From assembly GCF_036864975.1 (NCBI RefSeq), contig NZ_CP104311.1, positions 2,273,513 through 2,297,512 of the forward strand: DNA of 24,000 nt, in the 5' to 3' direction. The notes under the pieces were generated by a model. It was given only the letters and a program-made list of their open reading frames with translations. It had not been told where the DNA came from and made no database searches. This DNA comes from Methylococcus capsulatus. Its GTDB lineage: Bacteria > Pseudomonadota > Gammaproteobacteria > Methylococcales > Methylococcaceae. The position numbers were made by a program, and so were the translations under genes. Below, piece by piece: positions 1,796-18,133 of the stretch; the first letter of the stretch is position 1, and every line of letters begins with the position of its first letter.

Positions 1796-2581
1796 TCAGC
1801 GGGTCTGTGCTTCCAGAACGGCTAGCCGAACGCGGCTCGAAACTGGACGGCGCATCTGGATGACCACGCCAAGGATCTCGAGCGATTTCAGTTCGGTGCC
1901 CGCAAAGCTGGGAAAATCGGGATGTATCGAGATGAGTTCATAGTCGATCTCGTCCCCGGATTGTGATAGGACGCGGTATCTGTTCAGGTTGAGTCGCTCG
2001 GCACCCGGTCGGAAAACGATCACCGGATCGCTGGGCTGAAGCGGTGCATCCGGGTCGACAACCAATTGATCTCCGGGACGAAACTCGGGCTGGAACGCTT
2101 CGTCGCTCAGCTCCAGCTTGAGGGCGAACAGACGTGGACCGGATTCCGCGAATGGCAGCGAATAGTCCATGGCCACCCATTTGCCTGTCGATGATTGCAC
2201 CGACTGATCCTTGAGGTAAGCCTGTACGAGTTCGCAGTCCCGCGGAGAAAACAGCGGGACGCGACGAGCGCTCGCCATTGACAGAGGCCGTGCGGCATTC
2301 ACGATGCGGGAATGTTCATTTCCGAACAGCAGCGTATCGATATCGATTCCCAATTCCTTGGCGATAAGCGGCAGAAAGGTGCTTTTCCTGATTTTGCCCG
2401 ATTCTAGGCTTTGAATGGTTTGCTGTGCCGCGCCAACCCGTCCTGCCAGCTCATCCTGGCTCATGCCCAGACGTTCGCGGTAATGCCGGACACGCACGCC
2501 TACCGAAGTCAAATTTTCTCCCGATGATTGAATGGCGTTGGGATTCATGCCCAAGGAAGACATCCTCGCTGTTTTTCGCAT
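1796..2581 (-). CDS. XRE-family HTH repressor with C-terminal S24 (LexA/CI)-like domain
   Basis: HTH_3 motif VRHYRERLGMSQDELAGRVGAAQQTIQSLESGK. The C-terminal beta domain resembles the CI/LexA cleavage-dimerisation domain (FRPGDQLVVDPDAPLQPSDPVIVF...ILGVVIQM). Stop TGA 1796-1798. Start uncertain: ATG 2581, 2563 or 2548 are all in frame, and the 2605 track start is TTG. Confidence 0.7.
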   Translation of the reverse strand: MRKTARMSSLGMNPNAIQSSGENLTSVGVRVRHYRERLGMSQDELAGRVGAAQQTIQSLESGKIRKSTFLPLIAKELGIDIDTLLFGNEHSRIVNAARPLSMASARRVPLFSPRDCELVQAYLKDQSVQSSTGKWVAMDYSLPFAESGPRLFALKLELSDEAFQPEFRPGDQLVVDPDAPLQPSDPVIVFRPGAERLNLNRYRVLSQSGDEIDYELISIHPDFPSFAGTELKSLEILGVVIQMRRPVSSRVRLAVLEAQTR

Positions 2582-2611
2582 GCTCGGTGAGCAGATCAAA
2601 AACAAAAAACC

Positions 2612-2652: not shown

Positions 2653-2916
2653 TCAGCGCCGGCCACGTCCGGTCTTGCGGCCTTTGTCCAGAGCGACGTA
2701 AATCGTCCTCCCTTCGAAATCTTGACCGTCCAGCCCTGAAATCGCCGCGCGGGCCTCATGACCTTCCATGTCCACCGTTGCGACGCCTCGCGCCTGTCCT
2801 GTAAATAAATCTCTACTCACCTTCAAGTCGAAGACTTTGCCATAGCCGCCAAACAATTCTCGCAGGTCGGCATCGGTCGTTGAAGGGGGTAAGCCATGCA
2901 CGAAAAGCGTCAACAT
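2653..2916 (-). CDS. Small RNA-binding protein with a single RRM (RNP-1/RNP-2) domain
   Basis: Starts MLTLFVHGLPPSTTDADLRELFGGYGKVFDLKV...ARGVATVDM...GRTIYVALDKGRKTGRGRR, with an RNP-2-like LFVHGL, an RNP-1-like RGVATVDM and a Gly/Arg tail. ATG 2916 is preceded by AGGAG with 9-nt spacing. The 2964 track start adds 16 non-RRM residues. Confidence 0.8.
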   Translation of the reverse strand: MLTLFVHGLPPSTTDADLRELFGGYGKVFDLKVSRDLFTGQARGVATVDMEGHEARAAISGLDGQDFEGRTIYVALDKGRKTGRGRR

Positions 2917-3189
2917 CGGTTCGAACTCCTGACTGAGATTGAAGTTGTGCGGAGAAAAAAGCACCTTCGAGGCAGGGAACGGGTCTGATGGTTTTGATGC
3001 TTGTTTACCACGCTGGCTGGAAGTGTACTGGACAAAATACTTTTTTAATAGTAGAAATTGGTGTCAATCATCGATTCGGCGACTAAGGGTGACGTGGTTC
3101 GTCGAACGCTTGGCTGGGCAGCCGGTGTCTGCCCGCCCCGGCGTTCGCACCGCCTGTTCGCACGGTTCACACAGTGCCTGGAGAATTCA

Positions 3190-4836
3190 TTGGGAAATCC
3201 TGTGTTGCAAACTTTTACCGCGTTGCGCGGCCTCGCCGACAGGAATGCAAGCTGGCGCCAGGATTTCGGTGCCGGCTTGCTGGTCTTTCTGATTGCCCTG
3301 CCTTTGTGTCTGGGCGTGGCCGTGGCTTCGGGATTCCCGCCCATGGCGGGTATTCTTTCGGCGGTGGTCGGCGGGCTGTTGGTGTCCCGTATCAATGGTT
3401 CCTACCTCACCATCACGGGTCCGGCCGCCGGTTTGATCGTGGTGATCCTCGGTGCCGTGCAATCGCTGGGTCAGGGCGACGCCATGGCCGGTTACCGCTA
3501 CACCCTGGCGGCCATCGTTGTATCCGGCGTGCTGCAAATCCTGTTGGGCCTTTACAAGGCCGGACGCCTGTCCGCCTACTTTCCCGCCTCGGTGGTCCAC
3601 GGCATGCTGGCCGCCATCGGCATCATCATCATGGCCAAACAGATCCCGGTGATGGCGGGCGTCAAAATCGAACCCGGTACCCACGCCAGCCTGTTGTCCA
3701 GCATGGCCCAGCTGCCTCATGGGCTCGCCTATTTCATCCCGGAAACGACCTTCATCGCCCTGGTGGGGCTGGCCATCCTGATCGCCTGGCCACGGCTCGA
3801 AAACCGCTTCCTCAGCAAAGTCCCGGCGCCCATCGTCGTCATTTTGTCCGGCATGGCCCTAGGGCAGGTTTTCGACCTGGCCCAGCTTCGCCCCGGTGAA
3901 AGCTTCCTGGTTCCCAAGGACTTGATCGTCGGCCCCGCTTTTCTGGTTGCGATTCCCGACAGCCTGCTGGCGAGCCTTTACCTGCCCGATTTCTCCAAGG
4001 TCTTCACGCTGGCGTTTTGGCAAAGCGTGATCAGCATCTGTCTGGTGGGCAGCCTGGAGAGCCTGCTAAGCGCAGCGGCGGTGGACAAGCTGGACCCCGA
4101 GCAGCGCTATTCCGACCTGAACCGAGACCTTCGCGCGGTGGGCATTGGCAACGTCGTCGCGGGGCTGATCGGCGGTCTGCCGATGATCGCCGAAATCGTG
4201 CGCAGCTCCGCCAACATCGACGCCGGTGCCCGAACCGCTTGGTCGAATTTTTTTCACGGCGCGTTTTTGCTGCTGTTCGTGTGGGCGTTTCCGCACGTGA
4301 TCGACACGATCCCTTTGGCCTCCCTGGCCGCGCTGCTGGTCTACACCGGTTTCCGCCTGGCCTCGCCCGAGGCCTTCGCCAGGACTATGGATCTGGGCCG
4401 GGAACAGCTGGCGCTGTTCGTCATCACCATCGTCGGTGTGCTGGCCACCAACCTCCTCGCGGGCGTGTTGATCGGCATCGCCGCCAAACTGCTCCTTCAT
4501 GTCGGGCGAGGCGTTCCCCTCAGGAATCTGCTGACCATTTTCTACCGGATCGAGCACCCAGCCCCCGGTACCTGTATCATCCATGTACGCGGTTCGGCGA
4601 TCTTCTCCAATTTCCTCGCCCTCAAGAGCGCCTTGGCGGAGCTGCCGGCCGGCAAAACGATCCTGTTCGACCTGTCCGACGTCTATCTGATCGACCATAC
4701 GGTGATGGAATTCATCGATCATTTCCGCGACGATGTCATCGCACAGGGCGGACGCTGCGAAATTCGTGGACTGGCCGGCCACGAGCCCTACGGCGAACAC
4801 GAGCTGGCGGCCCGCATCAAAACGCCGCAGAATTAA
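3190..4836 (+). CDS. SulP-family inorganic anion transporter with C-terminal STAS domain
   Basis: Multi-TM SulP core (GFPPMAGILSAVVGGLLV, LTITGPAAGLIVVILG, HGMLAAIGIIIMAKQ). STAS domain (IIHVRGSAIFSNFLALKSAL...ILFDLSDVYLIDHTVMEFIDHF). There is no in-frame ATG before TM1. I place the start at TTG 3190 (GGAGA 3180-3184), but GTG 3202 is equally possible. The 3058-3189 extension has visibly lower GC3 and no SulP-like sequence. Confidence 0.85.
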   Translation: MGNPVLQTFTALRGLADRNASWRQDFGAGLLVFLIALPLCLGVAVASGFPPMAGILSAVVGGLLVSRINGSYLTITGPAAGLIVVILGAVQSLGQGDAMAGYRYTLAAIVVSGVLQILLGLYKAGRLSAYFPASVVHGMLAAIGIIIMAKQIPVMAGVKIEPGTHASLLSSMAQLPHGLAYFIPETTFIALVGLAILIAWPRLENRFLSKVPAPIVVILSGMALGQVFDLAQLRPGESFLVPKDLIVGPAFLVAIPDSLLASLYLPDFSKVFTLAFWQSVISICLVGSLESLLSAAAVDKLDPEQRYSDLNRDLRAVGIGNVVAGLIGGLPMIAEIVRSSANIDAGARTAWSNFFHGAFLLLFVWAFPHVIDTIPLASLAALLVYTGFRLASPEAFARTMDLGREQLALFVITIVGVLATNLLAGVLIGIAAKLLLHVGRGVPLRNLLTIFYRIEHPAPGTCIIHVRGSAIFSNFLALKSALAELPAGKTILFDLSDVYLIDHTVMEFIDHFRDDVIAQGGRCEIRGLAGHEPYGEHELAARIKTPQN

Positions 4837-4856: not shown

Positions 4857-6971
4857 ATGCCGTTGTTTTTTGCTTACCTGTCGGTGATCGCCGCGCTGAC
4901 GTCGGCACTCCTCGCGCTGGCCACCAACCGCCGCGCCGGGTTGCAGCGTCTGGCGGAAGCGCTCGGGCGCCACGGGCTGCAAGCGCCGCCGGCGGTGGCC
5001 AGAATCCTTTCCGAAACGCATTTTGTCCGCATCCACCGCTACAGCCTGTTCGCCCTGCTGGGGATTTCCGGCGTCAGCGCCGTCCTGGCCGGGTTGGGCG
5101 CGCTCTCGAGCGGTGCCGTGCGCACCGATACCCTGCCGTTCGGACTGCCCTGGCTCAGCTGGCATGTCCGTATCGATCCCTTGTCCGGCTTCTTCTTCTG
5201 CGTCCTGGGCCTGCCGCTCGTCGCCGTCAGTCTTTACGGACCCAGCTACGTTCGGGAGTTCGAACACGGCAAGCACTCCCTGTCGGCCTTGGGGCTGTTC
5301 ACCGGGCTGTTCGTGGCCGGCATGGAGCTGGTCCTTTTGGCCGACGATGCGTTTTTGTTCATGATCGCCTGGGAGGTGATGTCGGTGGCCAGCTATTTCC
5401 TGGTCGCCTACCAGCACGATCATGCCGCAAACCGCCGCGCCGCTTTCCTTTACCTGCTGATGGCCGAAATCGGCGCGATCGCCATCATCTTAGGCTTTGG
5501 CGTGCTGGCGGGTTTCGGCGGGGGATTGAGTTTCGAGGCCTTGCGTGGGGCATCGTTGAGCCCGCTGTGGGCCAGCATCGCCTTCGTGCTCGGACTCGTC
5601 GGTTTCGGGATGAAGGCCGGCCTCGTTCCGATTCATGCCTGGCTGCCGGAAGCCCATCCCGTCGCGCCGTCCCATATTTCGGCGTTGATGAGCGGCGTGA
5701 TGTTGAAGATCGCCGTCTACGGCTTCATCCGCTTCACGTTCGACCTGCTGGATCAAATCCTCTGGCAATGGGGCGTGTTGGTGCTGATCATCGGTTCCGC
5801 ATCCGCCGTGCTCGGCATCCTCTACGCCCTGCAACAACAAAACCTCAAGCGGCTGTTGGCCTATTCCTCGGTGGAGAACATCGGCATCGTCTTCGTGGCG
5901 CTGGGATTGGCGCTGATCTTTCTGAGCAGCGGACAAACCCACCTGGGCACGCTCGGTCTGGTGGCTGCGCTGCTGCACTCGCTCCATCACGCCCTGTTCA
6001 AGTCTTTGCTGTTTCTCGGCGCCGGCGCCATCCTGCATCAGACCCACGAACAAAGCCTGGAAAACATGGGCGGCTTGGTCCATCGCATGCCCAAGCTGGC
6101 GGCGGTTTTTCTGGTCGGCACCCTGAGCATCGCGGCACTTCCGCCACTGAACGGGTTCGTTTCCGAATGGTTGATCTTCCAGACCGCGTTGCAGGCCAGC
6201 GCCATCGAGAGCGGCGTGCTGCGTAGCCTGATTCCCACCGCCAGCGCCGTACTGGCGCTGACGTCGGCCCTGGCGGCCACGTGTTTCGTCAAGGTCTACG
6301 GCGTGGCCTTCCTGGGATTGCCGCGATCGCATCACATCGCCCATGCCCGTGAGGTCCAGCATCGCGGCATGCTCGGCGGTCCCGTATTGCTGGCCGCCTG
6401 CTGCGTGCTGCTCGGCGTGCTGCCAACCCCGCTCATCAACGGTCTGGCGGGTTTGACGCGACAATTGACCGGCTTCGAGCTTCCCCACGTTTCCGCTTTG
6501 GGTTGGTTGTGGTTGACGCCGGTGTCGCCCGAGGTGGCGTCCTATTCGCCTGCCTTGGTGCTGGTGGGGGCTATGGCGGTCGGGTGGCTTTGCTATTACC
6601 TGCTGTATCGCCGCACCGGTTTGGATCCACGCCGGGCCGAACCCTGGGACTGCGGCTTCGGCGGTCTGACGGCACGCATGCAATACACCTCGGGGGCCTT
6701 CAGCATGCCGATCCGGCGTATCTTTCAACCCGTGTTCGAACTGCGCGAGACCCTCGAGGAACACAAGGAAGGCCCCGCCCAGGCGCGCGTCACGGCGCTG
6801 CGCTATCAATTCCACGTCCTGGATCGTGCCTGGTTGAGCCTGTATCAGCCGTCGGGCCGTGTCGTCACGAAGCTGGCGCGCGGGGCCGGCCGTTTGCAGA
6901 CCGGCAATATCCGCACCTATCTGGGTTATTCCTTCTTTACCTTGCTCTTTCTGTTGTGGGTGATCAGTTGA
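4857..6971 (+). CDS. HyfB/HycC-like (NuoL-type) antiporter-like membrane subunit
   Basis: ATG 4857 with AGGAG at 4847-4851, 20 nt after the sulP stop. Proton-antiporter family blocks are present (MIAWEVMSVASYFLV, GMKAGLVPIHAWLPEAHPVAPSHISALMSGVMLKIAVYG). The HycC/HyfB-type C-terminal region is present (EPWDCGFGG..MQYTSGAFSMPIRRIF). The 4017 track start is an out-of-context extension into sulP. Confidence 0.9.
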   Translation: MPLFFAYLSVIAALTSALLALATNRRAGLQRLAEALGRHGLQAPPAVARILSETHFVRIHRYSLFALLGISGVSAVLAGLGALSSGAVRTDTLPFGLPWLSWHVRIDPLSGFFFCVLGLPLVAVSLYGPSYVREFEHGKHSLSALGLFTGLFVAGMELVLLADDAFLFMIAWEVMSVASYFLVAYQHDHAANRRAAFLYLLMAEIGAIAIILGFGVLAGFGGGLSFEALRGASLSPLWASIAFVLGLVGFGMKAGLVPIHAWLPEAHPVAPSHISALMSGVMLKIAVYGFIRFTFDLLDQILWQWGVLVLIIGSASAVLGILYALQQQNLKRLLAYSSVENIGIVFVALGLALIFLSSGQTHLGTLGLVAALLHSLHHALFKSLLFLGAGAILHQTHEQSLENMGGLVHRMPKLAAVFLVGTLSIAALPPLNGFVSEWLIFQTALQASAIESGVLRSLIPTASAVLALTSALAATCFVKVYGVAFLGLPRSHHIAHAREVQHRGMLGGPVLLAACCVLLGVLPTPLINGLAGLTRQLTGFELPHVSALGWLWLTPVSPEVASYSPALVLVGAMAVGWLCYYLLYRRTGLDPRRAEPWDCGFGGLTARMQYTSGAFSMPIRRIFQPVFELRETLEEHKEGPAQARVTALRYQFHVLDRAWLSLYQPSGRVVTKLARGAGRLQTGNIRTYLGYSFFTLLFLLWVIS

Positions 6972-7915
6972 TGGTCTGGCTCCTGGCGATCGTGCAAACC
7001 CTGCTTTTCATCGGCGCGGCTCCCTTGCTGGCCGGCTGGACCAAACGGATCAAGTGCCGTCTGCAAAACCGCAAGGCACCCTCCCTGTTCCAGCCCTACC
7101 GCGACCTGTTCAAGCTGTACTGCAAGCAGCCCATCGTTCCGCAGCCGGCCTCGTGGATTTTCCGCGCCGCCCCTTACATCGTGTTCGCCTCGACCGTGCT
7201 GGCCGCTTCCACCGTGCCCTTGGTGGCGGTCGATCTGCCCACGGCGCGCATCGCCGACGTCATCGTGCTGGTGGGTTTCTTTGCCTTGGGACGGACCTTC
7301 CAGGTGCTGGCCGGCATGGACATCGGCACGGCCTTCGGCGGAATGGGCTCGTCGCGGGAAATGACCATTTCCTCGCTGGCCGAACCGGCGATGCTGATGG
7401 CGGTGTTCACCCTGGCCATGAGCGCCCACACCACCAACCTGTCGCAGGCCATGAACTATGTGCTCGACACCGGCCTGGTGCTGCGCCCCTCTTTCGTCTT
7501 CGCCCTGGGCGGTTTGATGCTGGTGGCGATCGCCGAGACCGGGCGGATACCGGTGGACAACCCCGCGACCCATCTGGAGCTGACCATGATCCATGAAGCC
7601 ATGATCCTGGAGTACAGCGGCCGCTGGCTGGCGCTCATCGAATGGGCCAGTCAGATCAAGCTGATGCTCTACGGTGTCCTCATCGCCAATATCTTCGTCC
7701 CCTGGGGGATCGCGCAGGCGCCGTCCCTGCCCATGCTCGGCTACGGGATCGCGGCGATCGCGCTGAAGCTCGCGGTTCTGGCGCTGCTGCTGGCCCTTTC
7801 GGAGGCCCTGTTCGCCAAGATGCGGATCTTCCGCGTGCAGGAATATCTTGGCTTTGCCTATCTGCTCAGTGTCCTGGGGATGTTGAGCCACATCATCCTG
7901 GAGGCGGCGCGCTGA
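6971..7915 (+). CDS. HycD/HyfC-like (NuoH-type) membrane subunit
   Basis: ATG 6971 shares its A with the upstream TGA (6969-6971). Clear similarity to E. coli HycD as I remember it (LLFIGAAPLLAGWTKRIKCRLQNRKAPSLFQPYRDLFKL; SSREMTISSLAEP; IPVDNPATHLEL..EAMILEYSG). Confidence 0.9.
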   Translation: MVWLLAIVQTLLFIGAAPLLAGWTKRIKCRLQNRKAPSLFQPYRDLFKLYCKQPIVPQPASWIFRAAPYIVFASTVLAASTVPLVAVDLPTARIADVIVLVGFFALGRTFQVLAGMDIGTAFGGMGSSREMTISSLAEPAMLMAVFTLAMSAHTTNLSQAMNYVLDTGLVLRPSFVFALGGLMLVAIAETGRIPVDNPATHLELTMIHEAMILEYSGRWLALIEWASQIKLMLYGVLIANIFVPWGIAQAPSLPMLGYGIAAIALKLAVLALLLALSEALFAKMRIFRVQEYLGFAYLLSVLGMLSHIILEAAR

Positions 7916-8592
7916 TGGCCATTACCGAACTAACCCTCTATCAACAGGCGATCCTGCTTTTGGCAGGATTGATCGCCCTGACCTCCTTCCTGATGCTGGG
8001 GCAATCGCGGCTGGTGCGTCTGGTCCTCGTGTTCGCCCTCCAGGGCCTGCTGCTGGCGGCGGCCACCGCACTGGCGGCCTCGGTGCTGGATTATCCCCAC
8101 TTGTACGTCTCGGCGGCCCTGAGCCTGTTGTTGAAAGGCATCGTCATTCCGGTCCTGCTGCAACGCCTGATCCACCGCATGGGGCTGCATCGGGTCATGG
8201 ACACCATCGACCACCCGGCGCGGGTGATGATGGCCGGAACGGCTTTGGTGGTGTTCAGTTATTACGTCAGCCTGCCGGTCGTCCAGCATTCCACCCTGGT
8301 CACGCTCAACGCCATCGCGGTCAGCCTCGCGGTGGTGCTGCTCGGCATGCTGCTGATGATCACCCGCCGCCAGGCGGTGGCCCACGTGGTCGGGTTCATG
8401 TCGATCGAGAACGGTCTGTTCTTTGCCGCCGTGGTCTCCACTTACGGCATGCCCATGGTGGTGGAACTGGGTGTGGCTTTCGACGTGCTGGTCGCCGCCG
8501 TGGTGTTCGGCGTGTTCTTCTTCCAGATCCGCTCCAGCATCGACTCCCTCAACGTAGACCAGCTCAGCAAGCTGACCGAGGCCGATCGATGA
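7915..8592 (+). CDS. HyfE-like small membrane subunit (NuoK-related)
   Basis: ATG 7915 shares its A with the upstream TGA (7913-7915). 225 aa, all-helical and hydrophobic, with the HyfE-like block GFMSIENGLFFAAV. Confidence 0.8.
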   Translation: MAITELTLYQQAILLLAGLIALTSFLMLGQSRLVRLVLVFALQGLLLAAATALAASVLDYPHLYVSAALSLLLKGIVIPVLLQRLIHRMGLHRVMDTIDHPARVMMAGTALVVFSYYVSLPVVQHSTLVTLNAIAVSLAVVLLGMLLMITRRQAVAHVVGFMSIENGLFFAAVVSTYGMPMVVELGVAFDVLVAAVVFGVFFFQIRSSIDSLNVDQLSKLTEADR

Positions 8593-10055
8593 TTGCGGTT
8601 TATCTCCTGCTTCTGGTCCCGCTCGCCGGCATGGCGCTGTTGAGCTTCCACGGACACCGTGCCGATGCCGGGCGGCTCAACGTCCGCTTCAATGCCTTGG
8701 CGTTGGCCGCCTCCGTGTGGCTGGCCATCGACGTGCTGATCAACGGTCCTGAACTCTCGGCGGGGCGGCTGCTGTACATCGATTCCTACAACGTCTACCT
8801 GGTGGCCCTGACCGCCTTCGTCGGCCTGACCACCTCGATGTTCTCCGGCCCTTACATGGCACACGAACAGGAGATCGGCCGGGTCACGGCGCGCCGGCTG
8901 CGTCTCTACTACGCCATGTACCAGGGTTTCATGCTGGCGATGTATCTGGTGCTCACGACCAACAACATGGGGGTCATGTGGGTGGCCATGGAGGGGGCGA
9001 CGCTCGCTACTGTGCTGCTGGTGAGCCTTTACCGCACCCCCGAATCGGTGGAAGCCGCCTGGAAGTATTTCATCCTGTGCGGCGTGGGTATCGCCCAGGC
9101 TCTGTTCGGCACCGTGCTGTTGTACTTCGCCGCCGAACAAAAATTGGGCGTGGGCGGCGAGGCGCTGTTGTGGACGGTGCTGCACGACAACGCCCACGCC
9201 CTCGATCCCGCCATCTTGAGCCTGGCTTTCGTATTTCTGCTGGTGGGCTACGGTACCAAGATCGGTCTGGTGCCCCTGCATCAATGGCTGCCCGACGCCC
9301 ACTCGGAAGGCCCCACCCCGATGTCCGCGATCCTCTCGGGGCTTTTGCTCAACGACGCGCTCTATGCGGTGGTACGCTGCAAGATGCTGGTGGATGGCTC
9401 GCTCGGAACCCATCTGGCTGGCAACCTGATGATGGGCTTCGGACTGCTGTCCTTCCTGGTCGCGGCCTTGTTCCTGCACCGCCAGACCGATATCAAACGG
9501 CTGTTCAGCTATTCCTCCATCGAACACATGGGGTTGATGACCTTCGCCTTCGGTGTGGGCAGTCCCTGGGCCACCTTCGCCGCGTTGTTCCACATGACCA
9601 CCCACTCCCTGACCAAGTCGGCCATCTTCGTCACCGTGGGGCATGCCGCTCAGTTGGCCGGCACCCAGCGCATGGACAAGATCCGCGGGCTCATCCTGAC
9701 CCAGCCCACTATAGGCTGGGGCCTACTGATCGGCACGGTGGCCATCGCCGGATTCCCGCCCTTCGGGGTGTTCGCCAGCGAGTTCCTGGTTTTGGTCGCC
9801 ACGATGGATGATTTCCCCTGGCTGACCCCCCTCTTGCTGCTGGGGATAGGACTGGCCTTCGCCGGGCTGTTCCGCCATATCCAGCCCATGGTGTACGGCG
9901 ACGTGCCGGAAGGGCAAAAAGCCATCACTGCCAATCTGTGGCCGGTCTTCATGCACCTCGCCCTGGTGCTGTGGCTGGGCCTGGCCATCCCCGGTTTTCT
10001 GGGAAATTGGTTCAGCCAGGCGACGCAACTGATTGCCGGGAGTTTGCCGCAATGA
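8589..10055 (+). CDS. HyfF-like (NuoN/NuoM-type) antiporter-like membrane subunit
   Basis: ATG 8589 overlaps the upstream stop (ATGA). Antiporter family blocks are present (WVAMEGATLATVLLV, GTKIGLVPLHQWLPDAHSEGPTPMSAILSG, LFSYSSIEHMG). Confidence 0.9.
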   Translation: MIAVYLLLLVPLAGMALLSFHGHRADAGRLNVRFNALALAASVWLAIDVLINGPELSAGRLLYIDSYNVYLVALTAFVGLTTSMFSGPYMAHEQEIGRVTARRLRLYYAMYQGFMLAMYLVLTTNNMGVMWVAMEGATLATVLLVSLYRTPESVEAAWKYFILCGVGIAQALFGTVLLYFAAEQKLGVGGEALLWTVLHDNAHALDPAILSLAFVFLLVGYGTKIGLVPLHQWLPDAHSEGPTPMSAILSGLLLNDALYAVVRCKMLVDGSLGTHLAGNLMMGFGLLSFLVAALFLHRQTDIKRLFSYSSIEHMGLMTFAFGVGSPWATFAALFHMTTHSLTKSAIFVTVGHAAQLAGTQRMDKIRGLILTQPTIGWGLLIGTVAIAGFPPFGVFASEFLVLVATMDDFPWLTPLLLLGIGLAFAGLFRHIQPMVYGDVPEGQKAITANLWPVFMHLALVLWLGLAIPGFLGNWFSQATQLIAGSLPQ

Positions 10056-11635
10056 GCGTTGACAGCTTGACTTCACTGCGGTTGAAGCTGGCGGCCCAGG
10101 ACATCGACAACGTTTCGTCGGTCCATCGTTTCCTGTCGCCCGCAATGGTGTTGCAGCTCGACGCCCGAGATTGGGGCAAAGCTGCCGAAATCACCAAGTC
10201 CGAACATTGGCGCTGGGCCGGCATCTGGGCCGAGGACCGAGGCGCCGAGCTGGTCGTCAATGCCTGTTTGGAACACCAGGGAAGTTATCTGATCCTGCGG
10301 ACCCTCCTGACGCCGGAGCGGGCGATCCTGCCGTCGCAGGCCCCGCACTACTGGGCCGCGGATCGGCCGGAACGCCACATCCGCGACCTGTTCGGCATCC
10401 ATTTCGAGGGCCATCCCGACCCGCGCCGCTGGATCCGACATCAGGCTTGGGACGAAAACGTATTCCCGCTGCGCAAACACTTCGCGGCGGCCGGCACCCC
10501 TCCCGGCGAGACCCCGCCAGACCGGGACTACCCTTTTCTGAAGGCGGAAGGCGCCAGCGTCTACGAAATCCCGGTGGGGCCGGTTCATGCCGGCATCATC
10601 GAACCGGGCCATTTCCGCTTTCAAGCCGTGGGTGAAACGGTCCTGCATCTGGAGGAAAGGCTGGGCTACGTGCACAAGGGCATCGAGAAGCTCGCCGAGG
10701 GCCGTGACCCGGCCGGCCTGGCGCGGCTGGCCGGGCGGGTGTCCGGCGACACCACGGTGGGCCACACCTGGGCCGCCTGCATGGCCATGGAACGCGCCGC
10801 CGGAATCGAAATCCCCTTGCGCGCGGCGTATCTGCGCGGATTGCTGGCGGAACGGGAACGGGTCATCAATCATCTGTGGGATTTGGGTGCTTTGTGCAAT
10901 GACGTGGGCTTCGCCTTCGGCCATTACCAGTTCGGCCGTTTGCGGGAACAGTGGCTGCGGGAAAATCAGCTCCATTTTGGCCATCGCCTGCTCATGGACC
11001 GGATCGTGCCGGGCGGGGTCGCCGTCGACCTCGGCCCCGACGCAGCGGGGACCATGGGTCGGTCCATAGCGGCCTTGCGGGGCGAACTCGACGAGCTGTT
11101 GACGATCCTCGATTCCAATTCATCCCTGGAAGACCGCTTTCTCGGCGCCGGCGTTCTCTCCACCGAGCTGGCGGCGGCCCTGGGTGCGCTGGGTTTCGTG
11201 GGCCGGTCCAGCGGCCAGACCTTCGACGTGCGCCGCGATGCGCCTTACGCCCCTTATGACCGGTTGACGTTCAACGTGCCGACGGAGAGTCAGGGAGACG
11301 TGGCTTCGCGGTTCTGGGTACGCTACAAGGAATTGCGGGTCGGCCTCCGCCTGCTCGAGGCATTGCTCGAAGGCCTGCCCGAAGGCATGGTGGCAGTACC
11401 CTGGCAGATTCCCCCCGAGGGCGCGGAAGGCTTCGCGGCGGTCGAGGGCTGGCGTGGCGAAATCCTCTGCTACGTGCGCTTCGGCGCGGGCAACGCGATC
11501 GCCCGCTACTGGCCGCGCGATCCCAGTATCGTCAACTGGCCGGCGCTGGAGAAACTGGTGCTCGGCAACATCGTGCCCGACTTCCCGGTGTGCAACAAAT
11601 CGGTGAACGGCTCCTATTCCGGCCACGACCTTTGA
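10052..11635 (+). CDS. Group-4-hydrogenase 'large subunit' homologue (NuoC-NuoD-like fusion) lacking NiFe cysteine ligands
   Basis: ATG 10052 overlaps the upstream stop (ATGA). N-terminal NuoC-like domain (RPERHIRDLFGIHFEGHPDPRRW). NuoD/HycE-like domain (IPVGPVHAGIIEPGHFRF...LGYVHKGIEKLAE). The usual RxCGxCxxxH position reads RVSGDTTVGH. The C-terminus reads DFPVCNKSVNGSYSGHDL-stop instead of DPCxxCxxH/R. Confidence 0.9.
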   Translation: MSVDSLTSLRLKLAAQDIDNVSSVHRFLSPAMVLQLDARDWGKAAEITKSEHWRWAGIWAEDRGAELVVNACLEHQGSYLILRTLLTPERAILPSQAPHYWAADRPERHIRDLFGIHFEGHPDPRRWIRHQAWDENVFPLRKHFAAAGTPPGETPPDRDYPFLKAEGASVYEIPVGPVHAGIIEPGHFRFQAVGETVLHLEERLGYVHKGIEKLAEGRDPAGLARLAGRVSGDTTVGHTWAACMAMERAAGIEIPLRAAYLRGLLAERERVINHLWDLGALCNDVGFAFGHYQFGRLREQWLRENQLHFGHRLLMDRIVPGGVAVDLGPDAAGTMGRSIAALRGELDELLTILDSNSSLEDRFLGAGVLSTELAAALGALGFVGRSSGQTFDVRRDAPYAPYDRLTFNVPTESQGDVASRFWVRYKELRVGLRLLEALLEGLPEGMVAVPWQIPPEGAEGFAAVEGWRGEILCYVRFGAGNAIARYWPRDPSIVNWPALEKLVLGNIVPDFPVCNKSVNGSYSGHDL

Positions 11636-11647
11636 CGAGGGCTTTTT

Positions 11648-12187
11648 ATGCTGCGACTGTACAGCAAGATCTTCAAAACCGGCGTTCTCACCGAGAAAGT
11701 GCCCAAGCCGCCCAGTCCCGGGATCGGCGTTGCCGAGCGAGAGGAGGCGATCGAGCAAGTCGGCCGGGCGCTCAAGGGGATCGTCGACAAACGGTTTCGC
11801 GGCAGTCTCGCCATCCGTCAGGTGGATGCCGGCTCCTGCAACGGCTGCGAGCTGGAGATCCATGCGCTCAACAACGTCTATTACGACGTCGAACGCTTCG
11901 GGGTGCATTTCGTGGCATCGCCGCGCCATGCCGACGTGCTGCTGGTGACGGGGCCGGTTTCCCGCCACATGGAAGCCGCCCTGAAGCGCACCTACGAAGC
12001 CACGCCCGACCCCAAATGGGTGATCGCCGTGGGCGATTGCGGCGCCTGCGGCGGCGAGTTCGGCGTGTCTTACGCCAGCTGCGGCGCAGTGAGCAACGTG
12101 ATCCCCGTCGATCTCGCCATCCCGGGCTGCCCGCCGTCCCCCCTCGCACTGTTGCAGGGCCTGCTGTCGCTGTGCGGGAGGCAGTAA
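11648..12187 (+). CDS. HycG/HyfI-like (NuoB-type) small subunit with [4Fe-4S] cysteines retained
   Basis: GAGGG RBS before ATG 11648. NuoB/HycG signatures are present: VDAGSCNGCELEI, ASPRHADVLLVTGPVS, GDCGACGG, IPGCPPSP. All four cluster Cys positions are therefore present. Confidence 0.9.
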   Translation: MLRLYSKIFKTGVLTEKVPKPPSPGIGVAEREEAIEQVGRALKGIVDKRFRGSLAIRQVDAGSCNGCELEIHALNNVYYDVERFGVHFVASPRHADVLLVTGPVSRHMEAALKRTYEATPDPKWVIAVGDCGACGGEFGVSYASCGAVSNVIPVDLAIPGCPPSPLALLQGLLSLCGRQ

Positions 12188-12315: not shown

Positions 12316-14163
12316 CTAAGTTCGGCTCTGCGCCGCTGCGCGTTCGCGGAAGACCTGGATGCGCCCATCGAAGCCCTCCAGCCAGGCCAACTGCGCTTCA
12401 AGCCGCCGGATCCGGGAGCCAGCCTGGTCCGAGGCCCGGGAGCGTTCCGCGGCACCCCGAGTCAATGCCTGTTCCAAGCCATCCGCCACGCCCTCCAGAC
12501 GCTGGCGTAGGCGGGCCGACAGCTCCTCCCTCGTTTCTTCCAGGCGTCGCCGGATGCCGCTGCGGATGCGTCCGGTCAGCATTTCCATTGTCTCGGTCAA
12601 CTGGCGCCTGCGTCGCCGGACGATACCGTGCCGGGCCCAGCGCTCGGCCAGGGATTTGAGCTTTCGGAAGCGCGGCGCGACCAGTTCCGGCGCCCGCTTC
12701 AAGACCTGCTCCGTGAGCAGCTCCAGCCCCATGGGTTCGTCCGTGGGACGGACCCCGGCGCGGGTTCGTTCCGGCCAGCTCGTCTGCAAAGCAGCGGTCG
12801 GCACGGCAAGCTGGAACAGACCGCCGGCAAAGCGCTGGAGGTCGGTGACCATTTCGTCGATTTCGAGGTCGAAGGTTCGGACAATCTCCGCGGCCGCCGC
12901 ATCGGCTTGGCGCTCCAATACCTCCCGCCAGTCGGCGAAGGATTCTGCGACCTCTTCCCGGATGAAGGTTTCCAGGCACTCGTCGAAATCTTTCGGAGGC
13001 TGGAGGTCGTGGTCGAGGACCAGAGCATCGAATCTCCGGGCCAGGTGCGAACGTAGCTCTTCGAACCGGCGTTCGGGGTCACGCGCGAAAATCCCGTCGG
13101 CCAGCAGATGGAATTCCTGCCGCAGACGTCCGTCGAGCCGCCGCAGTTCACGCTCCGCCTGAAACCGGCGGGCAGCAAACCGGGCGATCTTTTCGTCCAA
13201 CTCTGCTATCGGGAGGGTCAGGGAACTTCGCTCCAGCCGGGTTTCCAGGCGCAACCGACCGGTTAGGCGCGCGAGGCCGGAAGCCGCGGCATCGAGCAGC
13301 AGCGCACCTTTTTCCTCCAGTAAAAAGCGTTCGAGCGCCGCAGTGAAGACCGGCAGGCGGCTCGCGTCGAGCCGTGCCGGATCGTTGCCGGCTTTTCCCA
13401 TCAGCGCATCCCGGGCGGAAATGGGGAAGAGGCGGACCTCCGTACCCACTGCCTGGGTCAGGACACGGCGGGAGAAGTGCTCGATCGCGGCGATGTCGGC
13501 TTCCTGCAGGATGTCGATCTTATTCAACAGAAAAAAGATACGGCCGGCGTACTTCCGGACCTCATTGAGGAATTCCAGTTCGGCCTGGCTCACCGCCTGA
13601 TCGGCGGAGAGGACGAACAGAGCCGCATCGCAATGCGGCAGCCGGGCATAGGCGGTGTCGGTGTTGTGACGGAAAACCGAGCCGACCCCTGGGGTGTCGA
13701 CGATGCGCACGCCGTTCCTCAGGAGGGGCGAGGGCATCTGGATCAGCACCTCCCGCACGCCCTTCGCGTTGCCCGGATTACCCGGCTCGGTGATGTAATC
13801 CGCGAGCGTCTCCGGGTGGATGTCGAAGGGGCGGCCTTCCAGCGGCTGGACGGTGATCCGGTGCGTCTCGCCGTATATGAGGATGGTCACCACCGAGGTC
13901 AGCGGCACTGCCGCCGTGGGCAGCAGGTTTTCACCCAGTAGTGCGTTGATCAGGCTGGTCTTGCCGCGCTTGAACTGTCCCACCGTCAGGACGTCGAAAT
14001 ACCCCTCCTGCACCTTGTCACGAAGGGCGAGGGCGGGGCGCACAGCCGCAGGAAGGTTCTCGGCCAGCTCGTCGATCCGGTCCAAGAGCTCGGATTTGAG
14101 ATCCGCGTAGCCGGCGGCTTGCGGCGCGTCACCGGCGACACCGGAACGGGGAATGGCGTTCAT
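12316..14163 (-). CDS. Dynamin-family large GTPase (bacterial dynamin-like protein)
   Basis: G1 GQFKRGKTSLINALLG, G3 VRIVDTPGVGS, G4 FFLLNKIDIL, followed by about 350 aa of R/E/L-rich helical stalk. I place the start at ATG 14163, which overlaps the DUF4242 stop (ATGA). The 14313 track start would run 150 nt into the upstream gene. Confidence 0.85.
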   Translation of the reverse strand: MNAIPRSGVAGDAPQAAGYADLKSELLDRIDELAENLPAAVRPALALRDKVQEGYFDVLTVGQFKRGKTSLINALLGENLLPTAAVPLTSVVTILIYGETHRITVQPLEGRPFDIHPETLADYITEPGNPGNAKGVREVLIQMPSPLLRNGVRIVDTPGVGSVFRHNTDTAYARLPHCDAALFVLSADQAVSQAELEFLNEVRKYAGRIFFLLNKIDILQEADIAAIEHFSRRVLTQAVGTEVRLFPISARDALMGKAGNDPARLDASRLPVFTAALERFLLEEKGALLLDAAASGLARLTGRLRLETRLERSSLTLPIAELDEKIARFAARRFQAERELRRLDGRLRQEFHLLADGIFARDPERRFEELRSHLARRFDALVLDHDLQPPKDFDECLETFIREEVAESFADWREVLERQADAAAAEIVRTFDLEIDEMVTDLQRFAGGLFQLAVPTAALQTSWPERTRAGVRPTDEPMGLELLTEQVLKRAPELVAPRFRKLKSLAERWARHGIVRRRRRQLTETMEMLTGRIRSGIRRRLEETREELSARLRQRLEGVADGLEQALTRGAAERSRASDQAGSRIRRLEAQLAWLEGFDGRIQVFRERAAAQSRT

Positions 14164-14432
14164 TCTGCCGTGGTGGGATCGATGACGGTACGGACTTCGT
14201 TGATCGCGTCGGCGGGAAAGCCGCCTTCCATCGCATGCTGCCTCAACGTGGCGGCGTCCGGGGCGATGTAGATGCAGTACACCTTGTCGTCGGTGACATA
14301 GCTTTCGAGCCATTGAACCTGCGGTCCCATGGCGTTGAGGATGGAACAGGATTTCCGGGAAATCCGCTGCAACTCATCACGTGAAAGGTTTCCAGCGCCG
14401 GGAATCGTACGCTCTATGACATATTTGGGCAT
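14160..14432 (-). CDS. DUF4242 (SCO4226-like) small ferredoxin-fold protein
   Basis: The 90-aa sequence MPKYVIERTIPGAGNLSRDELQRISRKSCSILNAMGPQVQWLESYVTDDKVYCIYIAPD...GFPADAINEVRTVIDP matches my memory of the DUF4242 family pattern. A perfect AGGAGG lies 6 nt before ATG 14432. Confidence 0.75.
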   Translation of the reverse strand: MPKYVIERTIPGAGNLSRDELQRISRKSCSILNAMGPQVQWLESYVTDDKVYCIYIAPDAATLRQHAMEGGFPADAINEVRTVIDPTTAE

Positions 14433-14461
14433 GGTTATCCTCCTGACGGCTCTGATACATG

Positions 14462-14490
14462 AATAAAGCGGGCTGTATCGTGCTTGTCGA
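14462..14490 (-). promoter_or_regulatory. Candidate sigma-70 promoter for the DUF4242-dynamin pair
   Basis: The minus strand reads TCGACA-N17-TTTATT (-35 at 14490-14485, -10 at 14467-14462), about 30 nt upstream of the RBS. Sequence match only. Confidence 0.3.
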
Positions 14491-14610
14491 GTAAAGTATT
14501 TCTGCGTTGCCTGATTTTCTCATGGTTCGTAATTCGATTGAATGCGGCGAAATGTCTCAGGGTTCGGTAACGAATTGACGGCCTTTCTGCCGACTTGAGT
14601 CGTACCATTA

Positions 14611-14657
14611 TGTCCGATGACTGTATGAAAATCGGACAGGTGTCGTGATTTCGGACA
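14611..14657 (+). promoter_or_regulatory. Inverted repeat TGTCCGAT-N12-ATCGGACA plus an adjacent half-site copy; candidate enhancer (UAS) for the sigma-54 activator of mmoX
   Basis: Perfect 8-bp arms at 14611-14618 and 14631-14638. A third TCGGACA lies at 14651-14657 and a fourth TGTCCGA at 14730-14736. The palindrome is centred about 120 bp upstream of the -24 element. Confidence 0.45.
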
Positions 14658-14745
14658 GATCGTCCTTTCATGGCGGCAGGGTCTGACCAATCCCATATTC
14701 GCTCCAAGGTCTTGATATATAGGTATGTGTGTCCGAAATAAAAAT

Positions 14746-14762
14746 TTGGCACGATCCCTGTA
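14746..14762 (+). promoter_or_regulatory. sigma-54 (-24/-12) promoter of the mmo operon
   Basis: TTGGCACGatccCTGTA. The -24 half (TGGCACG, 14747-14753) is a perfect match. The -12 half reads CTGT rather than TTGC. It sits about 100 nt upstream of the mmoX ATG. sMMO expression is known to depend on sigma-54 and MmoR. Confidence 0.65.
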
Positions 14763-14773
14763 ACGAGATAGTC

Positions 14774-14793
14774 ACAACCTCGTTGGAGGTTGT
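14774..14793 (+). other. Perfect 8-bp stem / 4-nt loop hairpin at the predicted 5' end of the mmoX mRNA
   Basis: ACAACCTC-gttg-GAGGTTGT (14774-14781 / 14786-14793). It begins about 12-14 nt after the -12 element, at or next to the expected transcription start. Confidence 0.5.
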
Positions 14794-14864
14794 ATGTCCG
14801 GTGTCCACTGACGTCATCGGGCATTCCGACTCAAAGAAAGAATGTGTTACGGAGGAAACGAGTA

Positions 14865-16448
14865 ATGGCACTTAGCACCGCAACCAAGGCCGCGACGGAC
14901 GCGCTGGCTGCCAATCGGGCACCCGCCAGCGTGAATGCACAGGAAGTGCACCGCTGGCTCCAGAGCTTCAACTGGGACTTCAAGAACAACCGGACCAAGT
15001 ACGCCACCAAGTACAAGATGGCGAACGAGACCAAGGAACAGTTCAAGCTGATCGCCAAGGAATATGCGCGCATGGAGGCCGTGAAGGACGAACGGCAGTT
15101 CGGCAGCCTGCAGGATGCGCTGACCCGTCTGAACGCCGGCCACCGCGTTCACCCGAAGTGGAACGAGACCATGAAAGTGGTTTCCAACTTCCTGGAAGTG
15201 GGCGAATACAACGCCATCGCCGCCAGCGGAATGCTGTGGGACTCCGCCCAGGCGGCGGAACAGAAGAACGGCTATCTGGCCCAGGTGCTGGACGAAATCC
15301 GCCACACCCACCAGTGCGCCTACGTCAACTACTACTTCGCCAAGAACGGCCAGGACCCGGCCGGCCACAACGACGCCCGCCGCACCCGCACCATCGGGCC
15401 GCTGTGGAAGGGCATGAAGCGGGTGTTCTCGGACGGCTTCATCTCCGGCGACGCGGTGGAATGCTCCATCAACCTGCAACTGGTGGGCGAGGCCTGCTTC
15501 ACCAACCCCCTGATCGTCGCAGTGACCGAATGGGCCGCCGCCAACGGTGACGAAATCACCCCGACGGTGTTCCTGTCGATCGAGACCGACGAGCTGCGCC
15601 ACATGGCCAACGGCTACCAGACCGTGGTCTCCATCGCCAACGATCCGGCTGCCGCCAAGTACCTCAACACGGACCTGAACAACGCGTTCTGGACCCAACA
15701 GAAGTACTTCACGCCGGCGCTGGGCATGCTGTTCGAGTACGGCTCCAAGTTCAAGGTCGAGCCGTGGGTCAAGACCTGGAACCGCTGGGTGTACGAGGAC
15801 TGGGGCGGCATCTGGATCGGCCGTCTGGGCAAGTACGGGGTGGAGTCGCCGCGCAGCCTGAAGGACGCCAAGCAGGACGCTTACTGGGCACACCACGATC
15901 TGTATCTGCTGGCTTATGCGCTGTGGCCGACCGGCTTCTTCCGCCTGGCCCTGCCGGATCAGGAGGAAATGGAGTGGTTCGAGGCCAACTATCCGGGTTG
16001 GTACGACCACTACGGCAAGATCTACGAGGAATGGCGCGCCCGCGGCTGCGAGGATCCGTCCTCGGGCTTCATTCCTCTGATGTGGTTCATCGAAAACAAC
16101 CACCCGATCTACATCGACCGGGTGTCGCAGGTGCCGTTCTGCCCGAGCTTGGCCAAGGGCGCCAGCACCCTGCGCGTGCACGAGTACAACGGCCAGATGC
16201 ACACCTTCAGCGACCAGTGGGGTGAACGCATGTGGCTGGCCGAGCCGGAACGCTACGAGTGCCAGAACATCTTCGAGCAGTATGAAGGCATGGAGCTGTC
16301 GGAAGTGATCGCCGAGCTGCACGGCCTGCGCAGCGATGGCAAAACCCTGATCGCCCAGCCGCATGTCCGTGGCGACAAGCTGTGGACGCTGGACGACATC
16401 AAACGTCTGAACTGCGTCTTCAAGAACCCGGTGAAGGCATTCAATTGA
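14865..16448 (+). CDS. mmoX: Soluble methane monooxygenase hydroxylase alpha subunit
   Basis: 527 aa, MALSTATKAATDALAANRAP..., recognised as MmoX. Di-iron ligand motifs are visible (EVGEYNA, LDEIRHTHQ, GEACFTNP, ETDELRHMANG). GGAGGA RBS at 14851-14856. The 14790 track start is a TTG extension. Confidence 0.98.
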   Translation: MALSTATKAATDALAANRAPASVNAQEVHRWLQSFNWDFKNNRTKYATKYKMANETKEQFKLIAKEYARMEAVKDERQFGSLQDALTRLNAGHRVHPKWNETMKVVSNFLEVGEYNAIAASGMLWDSAQAAEQKNGYLAQVLDEIRHTHQCAYVNYYFAKNGQDPAGHNDARRTRTIGPLWKGMKRVFSDGFISGDAVECSINLQLVGEACFTNPLIVAVTEWAAANGDEITPTVFLSIETDELRHMANGYQTVVSIANDPAAAKYLNTDLNNAFWTQQKYFTPALGMLFEYGSKFKVEPWVKTWNRWVYEDWGGIWIGRLGKYGVESPRSLKDAKQDAYWAHHDLYLLAYALWPTGFFRLALPDQEEMEWFEANYPGWYDHYGKIYEEWRARGCEDPSSGFIPLMWFIENNHPIYIDRVSQVPFCPSLAKGASTLRVHEYNGQMHTFSDQWGERMWLAEPERYECQNIFEQYEGMELSEVIAELHGLRSDGKTLIAQPHVRGDKLWTLDDIKRLNCVFKNPVKAFN

Positions 16449-16458
16449 AACGAGCGTT

Positions 16459-16482
16459 GGGCTCCGTCGCAGAACGGGGCCC
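16459..16482 (+). other. GC-rich stem-loop in the mmoX-mmoY spacer
   Basis: GGGCTCCG-tcgcagaa-CGGGGCCC: an 8-bp stem with one mismatch and no U-tract, starting 11 nt after the mmoX stop. Confidence 0.4.
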
Positions 16483-16526
16483 GACACACAATCGTTCGAT
16501 CAACATCAAACTAAAGGAACATCGAT

Positions 16527-17696: not shown

Positions 17697-17707
17697 GAGT
17701 TATCACG

Positions 17708-18133
17708 ATGAGCGTAAGCAGCAACGCGTACGATGCCGGCATCATGAGCCTGAAAGGCAAGGAGTTCGCCGATCAGTTCTTTGCCGAAGAAAATCAGGTG
17801 GTCCACGAAAGCGACACGGTCGTTCTGGTCCTCAAGAAGTCGGACGAGATCAATACCTTTATCGAGGAGATTCTTCTGACGGACTACAAGAAGAACGTCA
17901 ATCCGACGGTGAACGTGGAGGACCGCGCCGGCTACTGGTGGATCAAGGCCAACGGCAAGATCGAGGTCGATTGCGACGAGCTGACCGAGCTTTTGGGCCG
18001 TCCTTACAACGTCTATGACTTCCTCGTCGACGTTTCCTCGACCATCGGCCGGGCCTATACCCTGGGCAACAAGTTCACCATTACCAGTGAGCTGATGGGC
18101 CTGGACCGCAAGCTCGAAGACTACCACGAATAA
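17708..18133 (+). CDS. mmoB: Soluble methane monooxygenase regulatory protein B
   Basis: 141 aa, [25 protein letters not shown]...[13 protein letters not shown], recognised as MmoB. TAGGAG RBS. The 17495 track start lies inside mmoY. Confidence 0.97.

Follow-up and report, generated by a model that had tools for sequence, protein, structure and literature searches.

We analysed a 24,000-nucleotide stretch of a Methylococcus capsulatus genome (contig NZ_CP104311.1, positions 2,273,513–2,297,512 of the forward strand; hereafter the window), in which an open reading frame (ORF) at 10052–11635 on the forward strand encodes a protein related to the large subunits of group 4 [NiFe] hydrogenases. 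The protein is almost certainly a member of the energy-converting hydrogenase-related (Ehr) family and not a hydrogenase, as judged by the replacement of all four Ni-Fe-ligating cysteines in alignments, a six-gene architecture of the Ehr type and its position in neighbour-joining (NJ) trees; an earlier note on the window had assigned it to the same class. We propose that the Ehr complex is a cation translocator that may energize a SulP-family anion transporter encoded at the head of the same operon.

The former Ni-Fe site of the large subunit

The ORF encodes 527 amino acids followed by a stop codon, and its start codon overlaps the stop codon of the upstream gene (ATGA, read from the sequence). 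Pfam analysis identified PF00329 (NuoC-like), PF00346 (NuoD-like) and the N-terminal part of PF00374 (Ni-dependent hydrogenase). In a phmmer search of all Protein Data Bank (PDB) chains, the best match was Escherichia coli HycE (7z0s_E; E = 5.8e-65), with MbhL (6cfw_L; E = 7.5e-37), Thermus thermophilus Nqo4, a NuoD protein (2fug_4; E = 2.5e-33), and MbsL (6u8y_L; E = 7.7e-28) further down. Foldseek likewise placed HycE first (template-modelling (TM) score 0.78) when queried with an AlphaFold model (mean predicted local distance difference test (pLDDT) score 75, predicted TM score (pTM) 0.82; pLDDT <50 at the pocket-forming segments 146–209 and 497–527), and the model indicates that a hydrogenase-like fold is retained. 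The LGYVHKGIEKLAE block begins at residue 204. The phmmer alignment pairs HycE RVCGICGFAH with RVSGDTTVGH and HycE DPCYSC with NGSYSG, so that the four Ni-Fe ligand positions are occupied by S231, T234, S521 and G524 (HMMER alignment to HycE). Neither the group 4 L1 motif (R-x-C-G-x-C-x3-H; S231 and T234 instead) nor the L2 motif (D-P-C-x-x-C-x-x-H/R; S521 and G524 instead) is present, and the five cysteines of the protein (72, 243, 282, 473 and 514) include no CxxC pair.

These results bear out most of the earlier note, which had read the sequence by eye. The substitutions that it placed at Ser231 and Thr234 (nucleotides 10736–10765) proved exact by translation and by alignment to HycE, its report that the C-terminal DPCxxCxx[HR] motif is replaced agrees with S521 and G524 in the same alignment, and its count of no CxxC in the 527-residue protein was correct. 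The alignment that it proposed as a check, run with HycE, MbhL and NuoD, placed cysteine at none of the four ligand positions, in agreement with its statement that the protein cannot be a conventional hydrogenase. Two of its supporting arguments fared less well. The protein ends three residues past the former L2 motif, and the C-terminal maturation tail is thus absent as noted, but this has no diagnostic value: the nearest cysteine-bearing relatives also lack a tail, and we dropped the missing tail as evidence for hydrogenase loss since these relatives stop right after C-x-x-C-x-D-R. Similarly, a Pfam scan detected no hyp or hycI gene within the 24-kb window, as the note had said, but a window of this size is uninformative on the rest of the genome.

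The same replacement is found across a large family. A phmmer search over 1.84 billion representative sequences recovered 7,984 relatives at E ≤ 1e-3, including true hydrogenases and NuoD-type relatives. Full-length sequences among the best 150 (50%-identity representatives) were compared at the ligand positions and comprised 95 cysteine-less and 21 cysteine-bearing proteins. Cysteine occupied the four positions in 21, 21, 21 and 19 of the 21 cysteine-bearing relatives, whereas the cysteine-less relatives mostly had Ser at 231 (73 of 95), Ser or Thr at 234 (66), Ser at 521 (84) and Gly at 524 (87). In addition, position 233 was Asp in 84 of the 95 compared with Val, Ala or Ile in the cysteine-bearing group, and this Asp was invariant in an alignment of 27 diverse members. 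The cysteine-bearing pattern R-[IV]-C-G-[AV]-C ... S-F-E-L-C-Y-[AS]-C-x-D-R, at which the protein ends, thus has the counterpart R-[IV]-S-G-D-[ST] ... S-F-N-L-S-Y-[SA]-G-x-D-L in cysteine-less members. The β1–β2 loop (G-P-V-H-A-G-I-I-E-P-G-H-F-R-F), including Glu184, is nearly invariant in both groups, and the window protein keeps E184 and H187. Sequence comparison therefore indicates that loss of the Ni-Fe cysteines is a family trait and not chance, and that the former Ni-Fe site is remodelled and not abandoned. We did not find the replacement motif with its new Asp described in the literature searched, and an earlier description is possible. Comparison with three relatives at 77–79% identity gave dN/dS (nonsynonymous to synonymous substitution rate) ratios of 0.13–0.17 for the large subunit, showing that the gene is under purifying selection and, because of these values, not decaying.

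In NJ trees (BLOSUM62 distances without bootstrap, and thus approximate), all cysteine-less sequences fell into one clade, sister to tail-less cysteine-bearing group 4 enzymes and with HycE-type proteins outside; the family is large and apparently monophyletic. This rough tree was also the phylogenetic check proposed in the earlier note, and it placed the window protein within the single cysteine-less clade.

Ehr complexes reportedly received their name two decades ago, and an analysis of them by Marreiros et al. is reported to date from 2013. The family is defined by missing CxxC motifs, its function is stated as unknown (PMC10284858, PMC4758237, PMC6349859) and the label has already been used in methanotroph metagenome work (PMC6155033). 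The window protein shares each of the family traits: homology to group 4 large subunits in sequence, domains (PF00346 and PF00374) and fold; absence of the Ni-Fe-coordinating cysteines; genes for NuoB-like, NuoH-like and Mrp/Nuo antiporter-like subunits encoded together, with the same six genes in 160 related loci; and approximate NJ placement among the cysteine-less sequences, adjacent to 4f-like group 4 enzymes that lack a tail, the last in agreement with PMC10284858. Known Ehr clusters likewise encode NuoB-like small, NuoH-like, HyfE-like and antiporter-like subunits together; the window cluster differs in that it is the subtype reduced furthest, lacking a HycF-like ferredoxin domain on the small subunit, and in that a SulP transporter is encoded with it in this lineage.

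Several known complexes provide reference points. The E. coli formate hydrogenlyase (HycE/HycG/HycF/HycC/HycD; 7Z0S), which gave the best sequence and fold match, and the related Hyf complex (hydrogenase 4) have in common with the window cluster the NuoC–NuoD fusion, the E-P-G-H of the β1–β2 loop and HyfB/C/E/F-type subunits, whereas the window lacks the Ni-Fe cysteines, the maturation tail, separate HycF and HycB, FdhF and nearby hyp or hycI genes. Complex I shares the homologous core module and fold, and the ligands of the N2-equivalent [4Fe-4S] cluster and the antiporter-like Glu and Lys residues are present in the window operon; equivalents of NuoI, NuoEFG, NuoA/J/K and NuoN are not, and the quinone ligands are replaced. 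The Pyrococcus Mbx/Mbs complex, a membrane-bound sulfane reductase (6U8Y), is also derived from group 4 and no longer makes H2, but it is a much weaker match (MbsL) and, unlike the window operon, includes a NuoI-like subunit together with a far more subunit-rich Mrp module.

Cofactor loss, membrane arm and proposed ion translocation

The small subunit of the window retains the four ligands of the proximal [4Fe-4S] cluster (C64, C67, C131 and C161), with the motifs C-N-G-C, G-D-C and G-C-P-P aligning with HycG and MbhJ. These ligands are conserved in 139 of 144 small subunits and invariant in this clade. In the five remaining loci (L115, L125, L126, L147 and L158) all four are replaced (for example, D/T/D/N), or three of four in the case of L115, and the corresponding complexes would have no recognizable redox cofactor. 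Because these five relatives have lost the proximal cluster ligands as well, redox-free Ehr complexes appear to exist.

Many diverse metagenomic loci encode longer small subunits with a fused HycF-like N-terminal domain, which matches HycF (7z0s_F) collinearly from residue 1 (1–108 to 1–108; E = 7.1e-21) and also matches NuoI. The domain occurs in three states: with two complete CxxCxxCxxxCP motifs, with the four cysteines of a single cluster, or deleted. The window and every Methylococcales locus belong to the deleted type, in which only about 22 N-terminal residues (MLRLYSKIFKTGVLTEKVP) are kept; these resemble the start of the fused domain and are probably its remnant. When these states were placed on the approximate NJ tree, the order was cysteine-bearing with ferredoxin domain, cysteine-less with ferredoxin domain and, finally, a cysteine-less crown with the NuoB-type cluster only. 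The comparison shows the HycF/NuoI-like ferredoxin domain to be deleted in this lineage, leaving at most one predicted [4Fe-4S] cluster and no wire to the surface. The fused HycF–HycG form, with two, one or no ferredoxin-type clusters, was seen in L084, L086, L104, L105, L110, L117, L121 and others, and also in some cysteine-bearing (true hydrogenase-like) members. Neither the fusion nor the stepwise loss was found described in the literature searched, and both may have been described before.

The membrane arm shows a different picture from the peripheral arm. The positions of the Glu of transmembrane helix (TM) 5, the Lys of TM7 and the Glu of TM12 in the HyfF-like subunit align with those of Nqo12, MbhH and MbsH, and matching Glu/Lys motifs were read by eye only in the translated HyfB-like subunit. 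On sequence evidence, the membrane ion machinery looks intact and the peripheral arm appears to be without a catalytic metal site or electron wire. A quinone-binding pocket, which had been an earlier idea for the former Ni-Fe site, was rejected. Tyr87 and His38 of T. thermophilus Nqo4, the quinone head-group ligands of complex I, correspond to Gly232 and Ile183 (ungapped alignment to 2fug_4), and both ligands are thus absent.

Because conserved pathway residues coexist with cofactor-free relatives, the complex is probably ion-translocating; specifically, we propose that it would move cations (H+ or Na+) across the membrane in the manner of Mrp and complex I, and that the degenerate head would serve as a coupling or regulatory module and not as a catalytic redox site. 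The retained [4Fe-4S] cluster, together with the conserved Glu184/Asp233 pair, could make up a gate that senses redox state or pH.

The main alternative is a redox-driven ion pump that operates independently of SulP: the proximal [4Fe-4S] cluster, being exposed, would serve as a direct docking point for a soluble ferredoxin or some other protein, and reduction of an acceptor would take place where the Ni-Fe site used to be. Such a pump is the usual proposal in the literature, in which formate dehydrogenase (FDH)–Ehr or similar couplings have been suggested (PMC6349859, PMC7894505), and it would account for the near-universal cluster ligands, the kept E184 and H187 and the new conserved Asp in the pocket. 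HycF-type clusters, either one or two, persist in the deeper cysteine-less relatives, which suggests that Ehr complexes probably began as redox enzymes. Several observations speak against a redox pump in the window. No gene for NuoI or for an NADH or other electron-input module is present in the operon, the HycF-like domain of relatives is deleted, and NuoEFG, FdhF or another oxidoreductase gene is neither in the operon nor conserved beside it; the residues aligned with the quinone ligands are Gly and Ile; five relatives maintain the complex without a full set of proximal Fe-S ligands; and the recurrent linkage to SulP would be left unexplained. We therefore consider this alternative somewhat unlikely, although it is the strongest of those weighed here.

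SulP linkage and candidate anion substrates

The SulP gene is the first gene of the operon and ends 20 nucleotides before the HyfB-like gene; translation probably begins at the TTG at 3190, preceded by GGAGA. Among the genome loci (L001–L080, mostly Methylococcales and phylogenetically clustered), a SulP-family gene was located within 4 kb of the Ehr cluster in 51 of the 65 that could be evaluated, in three arrangements: upstream, between the HyfF-like and large-subunit genes, and, in Nitrospira-like loci, downstream. The inserted position is found in Methylocaldum and Methylotetracoccus (L006, L007, L009, L012 and L013), and two tandem SulP paralogues precede the HyfB-like gene in 18 loci of Methylobacter (L027, L037, L039, L047, L054 and others; approximately 1–4.7 kb). 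In diverse metagenome loci with usable flanks, 5 of 48 had a SulP gene within about 3 kb; for a family with a few copies per genome, we estimate, without a formal background, that chance would place one in <1% of such neighbourhoods. Given the operon structure and a linkage that recurs in at least three subclades and under three different gene orders, Ehr and SulP on balance appear to be functionally coupled. The complex would energize the co-encoded transporter and, in the simplest version, recycle or extrude the coupling cation of a SulP symporter.

A hint to the substrate comes from loci of another lineage. In L091, L096 and L169, a kinase, a σ54 regulator, the six Ehr genes and a SulP gene are followed by a gene for a 370-residue CsoSCA-like protein; because the related locus L170 carries amoA and amoB, we regard this lineage as Nitrospira-like. 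The 370-residue protein scored above the gathering threshold of the Pfam family CsoSCA_cat (31.9 and 23.1 bits; cut-off, 21.5) and matches CsoSCA (2FGY). Its family comprises 2,316 members at E ≤ 1e-5, mostly annotated as hypothetical, in which the residues of C-x-D-x-R ... Y-H ... G-C are invariant or at least 90% conserved. In a Thiobacillus sp. (L163, 4480–21059), a 352-residue member directly follows cbbL–cbbS–cbbQ–cbbO and adjoins a DabA gene that is accompanied by four antiporter-like genes of PF00361 (a DabA/DabB cluster). The family appears to consist of CsoSCA-type carbonic anhydrases that are non-carboxysomal. The SulP transporter of the window is 35% identical over its full length to the carbonic-anhydrase-linked SulP (270–301 bits). 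We did not find the SulP linkage or the carbonic-anhydrase linkage in Nitrospira described in the literature searched, and earlier descriptions may exist.

Inorganic carbon also has precedents in systems that are analogous in function. BicA-like SulP genes adjoin Na+/H+ antiporter genes in N. marina (PMC8115632), and DabB of DAB2 structurally resembles complex I's antiporter-like subunits, particularly NuoL (PMC13144422). The likeness to DAB and BicA is that an antiporter-like subunit serves inorganic-carbon acquisition in DAB2 and that SulP genes adjoin cation translocators. With DAB (DabA/DabB) the analogy is functional only: no homologue of DabA (PF10070) or CupA was found in the window, and, compared with DAB and NDH-1MS, the carbonic-anhydrase-like partner in the Nitrospira-like loci is of the CsoSCA type and is not encoded in the window. 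NDH-1MS is a cyanobacterial CO2-uptake complex. On the strength of the Nitrospira-like carbonic-anhydrase partner and the BicA–antiporter and DabB precedents, bicarbonate would be the most likely substrate of SulP; by analogy, we tentatively suggest inorganic carbon (bicarbonate), as a possibility short of a probable assignment. The whole chain as far as SulP-coupled anion transport, whatever the anion, is plausible and a little firmer than that, but also falls short of probable.

Several points weigh against this chain. No carbonic-anhydrase-like gene is present in the window or in any of 80 Methylococcales-type loci, and the order Ehr–SulP–carbonic anhydrase comes from a single lineage (three related contigs). 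As most genome loci belong to one order, the 51 of 65 is not a count of independent events, and 14 of the 65 Methylococcales-type loci, including that of the closest Methylococcus metagenome-assembled genome (L001), lack a SulP gene within 4 kb. Sulfate, dicarboxylates and further anions are also transported by SulP proteins, and the best NCBIfam matches of the window transporter (DauA, sulP and BicA) all lie far below their cut-offs. The strict retention of all four [4Fe-4S] ligands in this lineage is an argument for a continuing role of redox chemistry or sensing, and we found no expression or biochemical data on the window operon. In further searches bearing on the carbonic-anhydrase link, tblastn with the CsoSCA-like protein matched only in L091 and L096, and a scan of all 170 loci for the canonical β-carbonic-anhydrase motif gave a single match, in an out-of-frame ORF.

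The complex might instead energize a SulP whose substrate is not bicarbonate but sulfate or a small organic anion such as formate or a dicarboxylate. The family is multi-substrate, DauA and generic sulP head the NCBIfam matches, similarity at the level of the BicA equivalog is lacking (119 bits versus a cut-off of 880), and among relatives of solved structure the fumarate transporter SLC26Dg matches best (88 bits, compared with 67 bits for BicA, 6KI1); moreover, a DUF2490 outer-membrane protein and a σ54 two-component pair are often near, as in nutrient-scavenging systems. However, the sole substrate-hinting neighbour seen for this SulP subfamily is the carbonic-anhydrase-like gene, and no sulfur-assimilation or dicarboxylate genes were found among the conserved neighbours of the cluster. 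We regard this alternative as improbable.

We give still less credence to a vectorial CO2-hydrating machine like DAB or NDH-1MS, in which CO2 would be hydrated either by a carbonic anhydrase acting as partner or within the remodelled pocket, the membrane arm would remove the resulting proton and SulP would handle bicarbonate. The order in L091, L096 and L169 would fit such a machine, as would the occurrence of the same carbonic-anhydrase-like family beside RuBisCO and DabA/DabB in Thiobacillus and the precedent of DAB2, in which a NuoL-like subunit is coupled to a carbonic-anhydrase-like subunit (PMC13144422). Against it, no carbonic-anhydrase-like gene lies near the cluster in the window or in Methylococcales loci, the pocket residues (Ser, Asp, Thr, Ser and Gly) are not a known zinc site, and a Nitrospirae genome (L165) contains a SulP and carbonic-anhydrase-like pair with no Ehr within 10 kb. 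Finally, a decaying hydrogenase remnant or a hydrogenase with non-cysteine ligands is barely credible: although these genes have been annotated as hydrogenase or formate hydrogenlyase (PMC517821), the purifying selection effectively refutes decay, the reading frames are intact and translationally coupled and the replacement motif is conserved in a family of thousands. We know of no [NiFe] hydrogenase without four Cys or selenocysteine (Sec) ligands, which also counts against the latter form.

Genomic setting and implications

The six-gene Ehr operon (4857–12187), with the large subunit as its fifth gene, is translationally coupled (Table 1), and its gene order did not vary across the 80 genome loci or across 80 metagenome loci; the position of the HyfE-like gene is kept in all related loci. 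The closest homologues of the large subunit are from Methylococcus (84% identity to M. geothermalis) and then from other Methylococcales, and are labelled 'hydrogenase large subunit' or 'NADH-quinone oxidoreductase subunit C' in databases. In L003 and L004 the cluster has homologues of the XRE-type helix-turn-helix (HTH) regulator immediately upstream, making the regulator gene of the window a candidate regulator of the Ehr operon. Scans of the operon for σ70, terminator and σ54 consensus sequences gave nothing above shuffled sequences.

Table 1. Features of the window discussed in the text
Feature	Position	Strand	Basis or remark
SCO1/SenC and PCu(A)C copper-chaperone genes	208-1754	+	upstream of Ehr operon
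HTH (XRE-type) regulator	1796..2605	-	PF01381
Small RRM-type RNA-binding protein gene	2653-2964	-	between HTH regulator and SulP
SulP-family anion transporter with STAS domain	3058..4836	+	PF00916, PF01740
HyfB-like (NuoL-like) antiporter-like subunit, 704 aa	4857..6971	+	PF00361; NCBIfam NF005086, 823 bits (cut-off 667)
HyfC/NuoH-like membrane subunit, 314 aa	6971..7915	+	PF00146
HyfE-like small membrane subunit, 225 aa	7915..8592	+	NCBIfam NF008556, E=2.4e-21, below cut-off
HyfF-like antiporter-like subunit, 488 aa	8589..10055	+	PF00361; NCBIfam NF005045, 785 bits (cut-off 543)
Ehr large subunit, NuoC-like (about residues 55-149) and NuoD/HycE-like fusion, 527 aa	10052..11635	+	Pfam, HycE alignment, Foldseek
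Former L1 motif R-V-S-G-D-T-T-V-G-H, residues 229-238	10736..10765	+	S231 and T234 replace two Cys
Former L2 motif and C-terminus N-G-S-Y-S-G-H-D-L, then stop codon	11606..11632	+	S521 and G524 replace two Cys
Ehr small subunit (NuoB/HycG-like), 179 aa	11648..12187	+	Pfam PF01058
Dynamin-family GTPase gene	12316-14313	-	PF00350; between Ehr and sMMO operons
Small ORF	14435-14824	-	no Pfam match
Soluble methane monooxygenase (sMMO) operon (mmoX, mmoY, mmoB, mmoZ, small ORF, mmoC, GroEL-like mmoG)	14790-22206	+	Pfam; 2.6 kb downstream of Ehr operon
Response regulator with HDOD and GGDEF domains	22239-23879	-	far end of window

Other genes recur beside Ehr clusters. In 29 of L001–L080, approximately 200 bp after the small subunit, the same strand encodes a DUF2490 protein with a signal peptide, probably an outer-membrane protein (for example, L028, 12258–12968), and a pair comprising an AtoS/NtrC-like histidine kinase and a σ54-dependent regulator accompanies the cluster in about 18 loci; NCBIfam typing of these two-component regulators returned generic AtoC/NtrC-like matches below the cut-offs and no hint to a substrate. 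An ArsR-family regulator gene adjoins the cluster in 12 of L083–L162 (for example, L117, 2546–2893), an arrangement that resembles Rv0081–Rv0087 of Mycobacterium tuberculosis. Two Ehr-type clusters of different subtypes stand in tandem on one contig in L087, L088, L118 and L131.

We take the six-gene cluster MCA1137–1142 to be the equivalent of the Ehr cluster of the window. The M. capsulatus genome paper called MCA1137–1142 a formate hydrogenlyase that makes H2 from formate (PMC517821). If the same substitutions are present there, that annotation could not stand. Our literature search found no functional data for the M. capsulatus locus tags or for the M. tuberculosis Rv0082–87 homologues.

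Ehr complexes are widespread, occurring in methanotrophs, nitrifiers, Geobacter and many uncultured phyla, and the labels of hydrogenase or formate hydrogenlyase on their genes mean that H2 metabolism is over-predicted. It has been proposed that complex I evolved from hydrogenases with Ehr as an intermediate, and the stepwise loss of cofactors—the Ni-Fe site, then the HycF clusters, then the last cluster—suggests how a redox enzyme may become a pure ion machine. The gene-neighbourhood lead provides a concrete hypothesis for the family. In its fullest form, which we consider unlikely to hold in every part, crown-group Ehr complexes would no longer be redox enzymes but cation engines for inorganic-carbon acquisition with SulP and, in Nitrospira, with a CsoSCA-like carbonic anhydrase. 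If true, the role in inorganic-carbon acquisition would be the first function for Ehr, and complex I-type modules would have been recruited independently for carbon concentration a third time, NDH-1MS and DAB being the two earlier cases.

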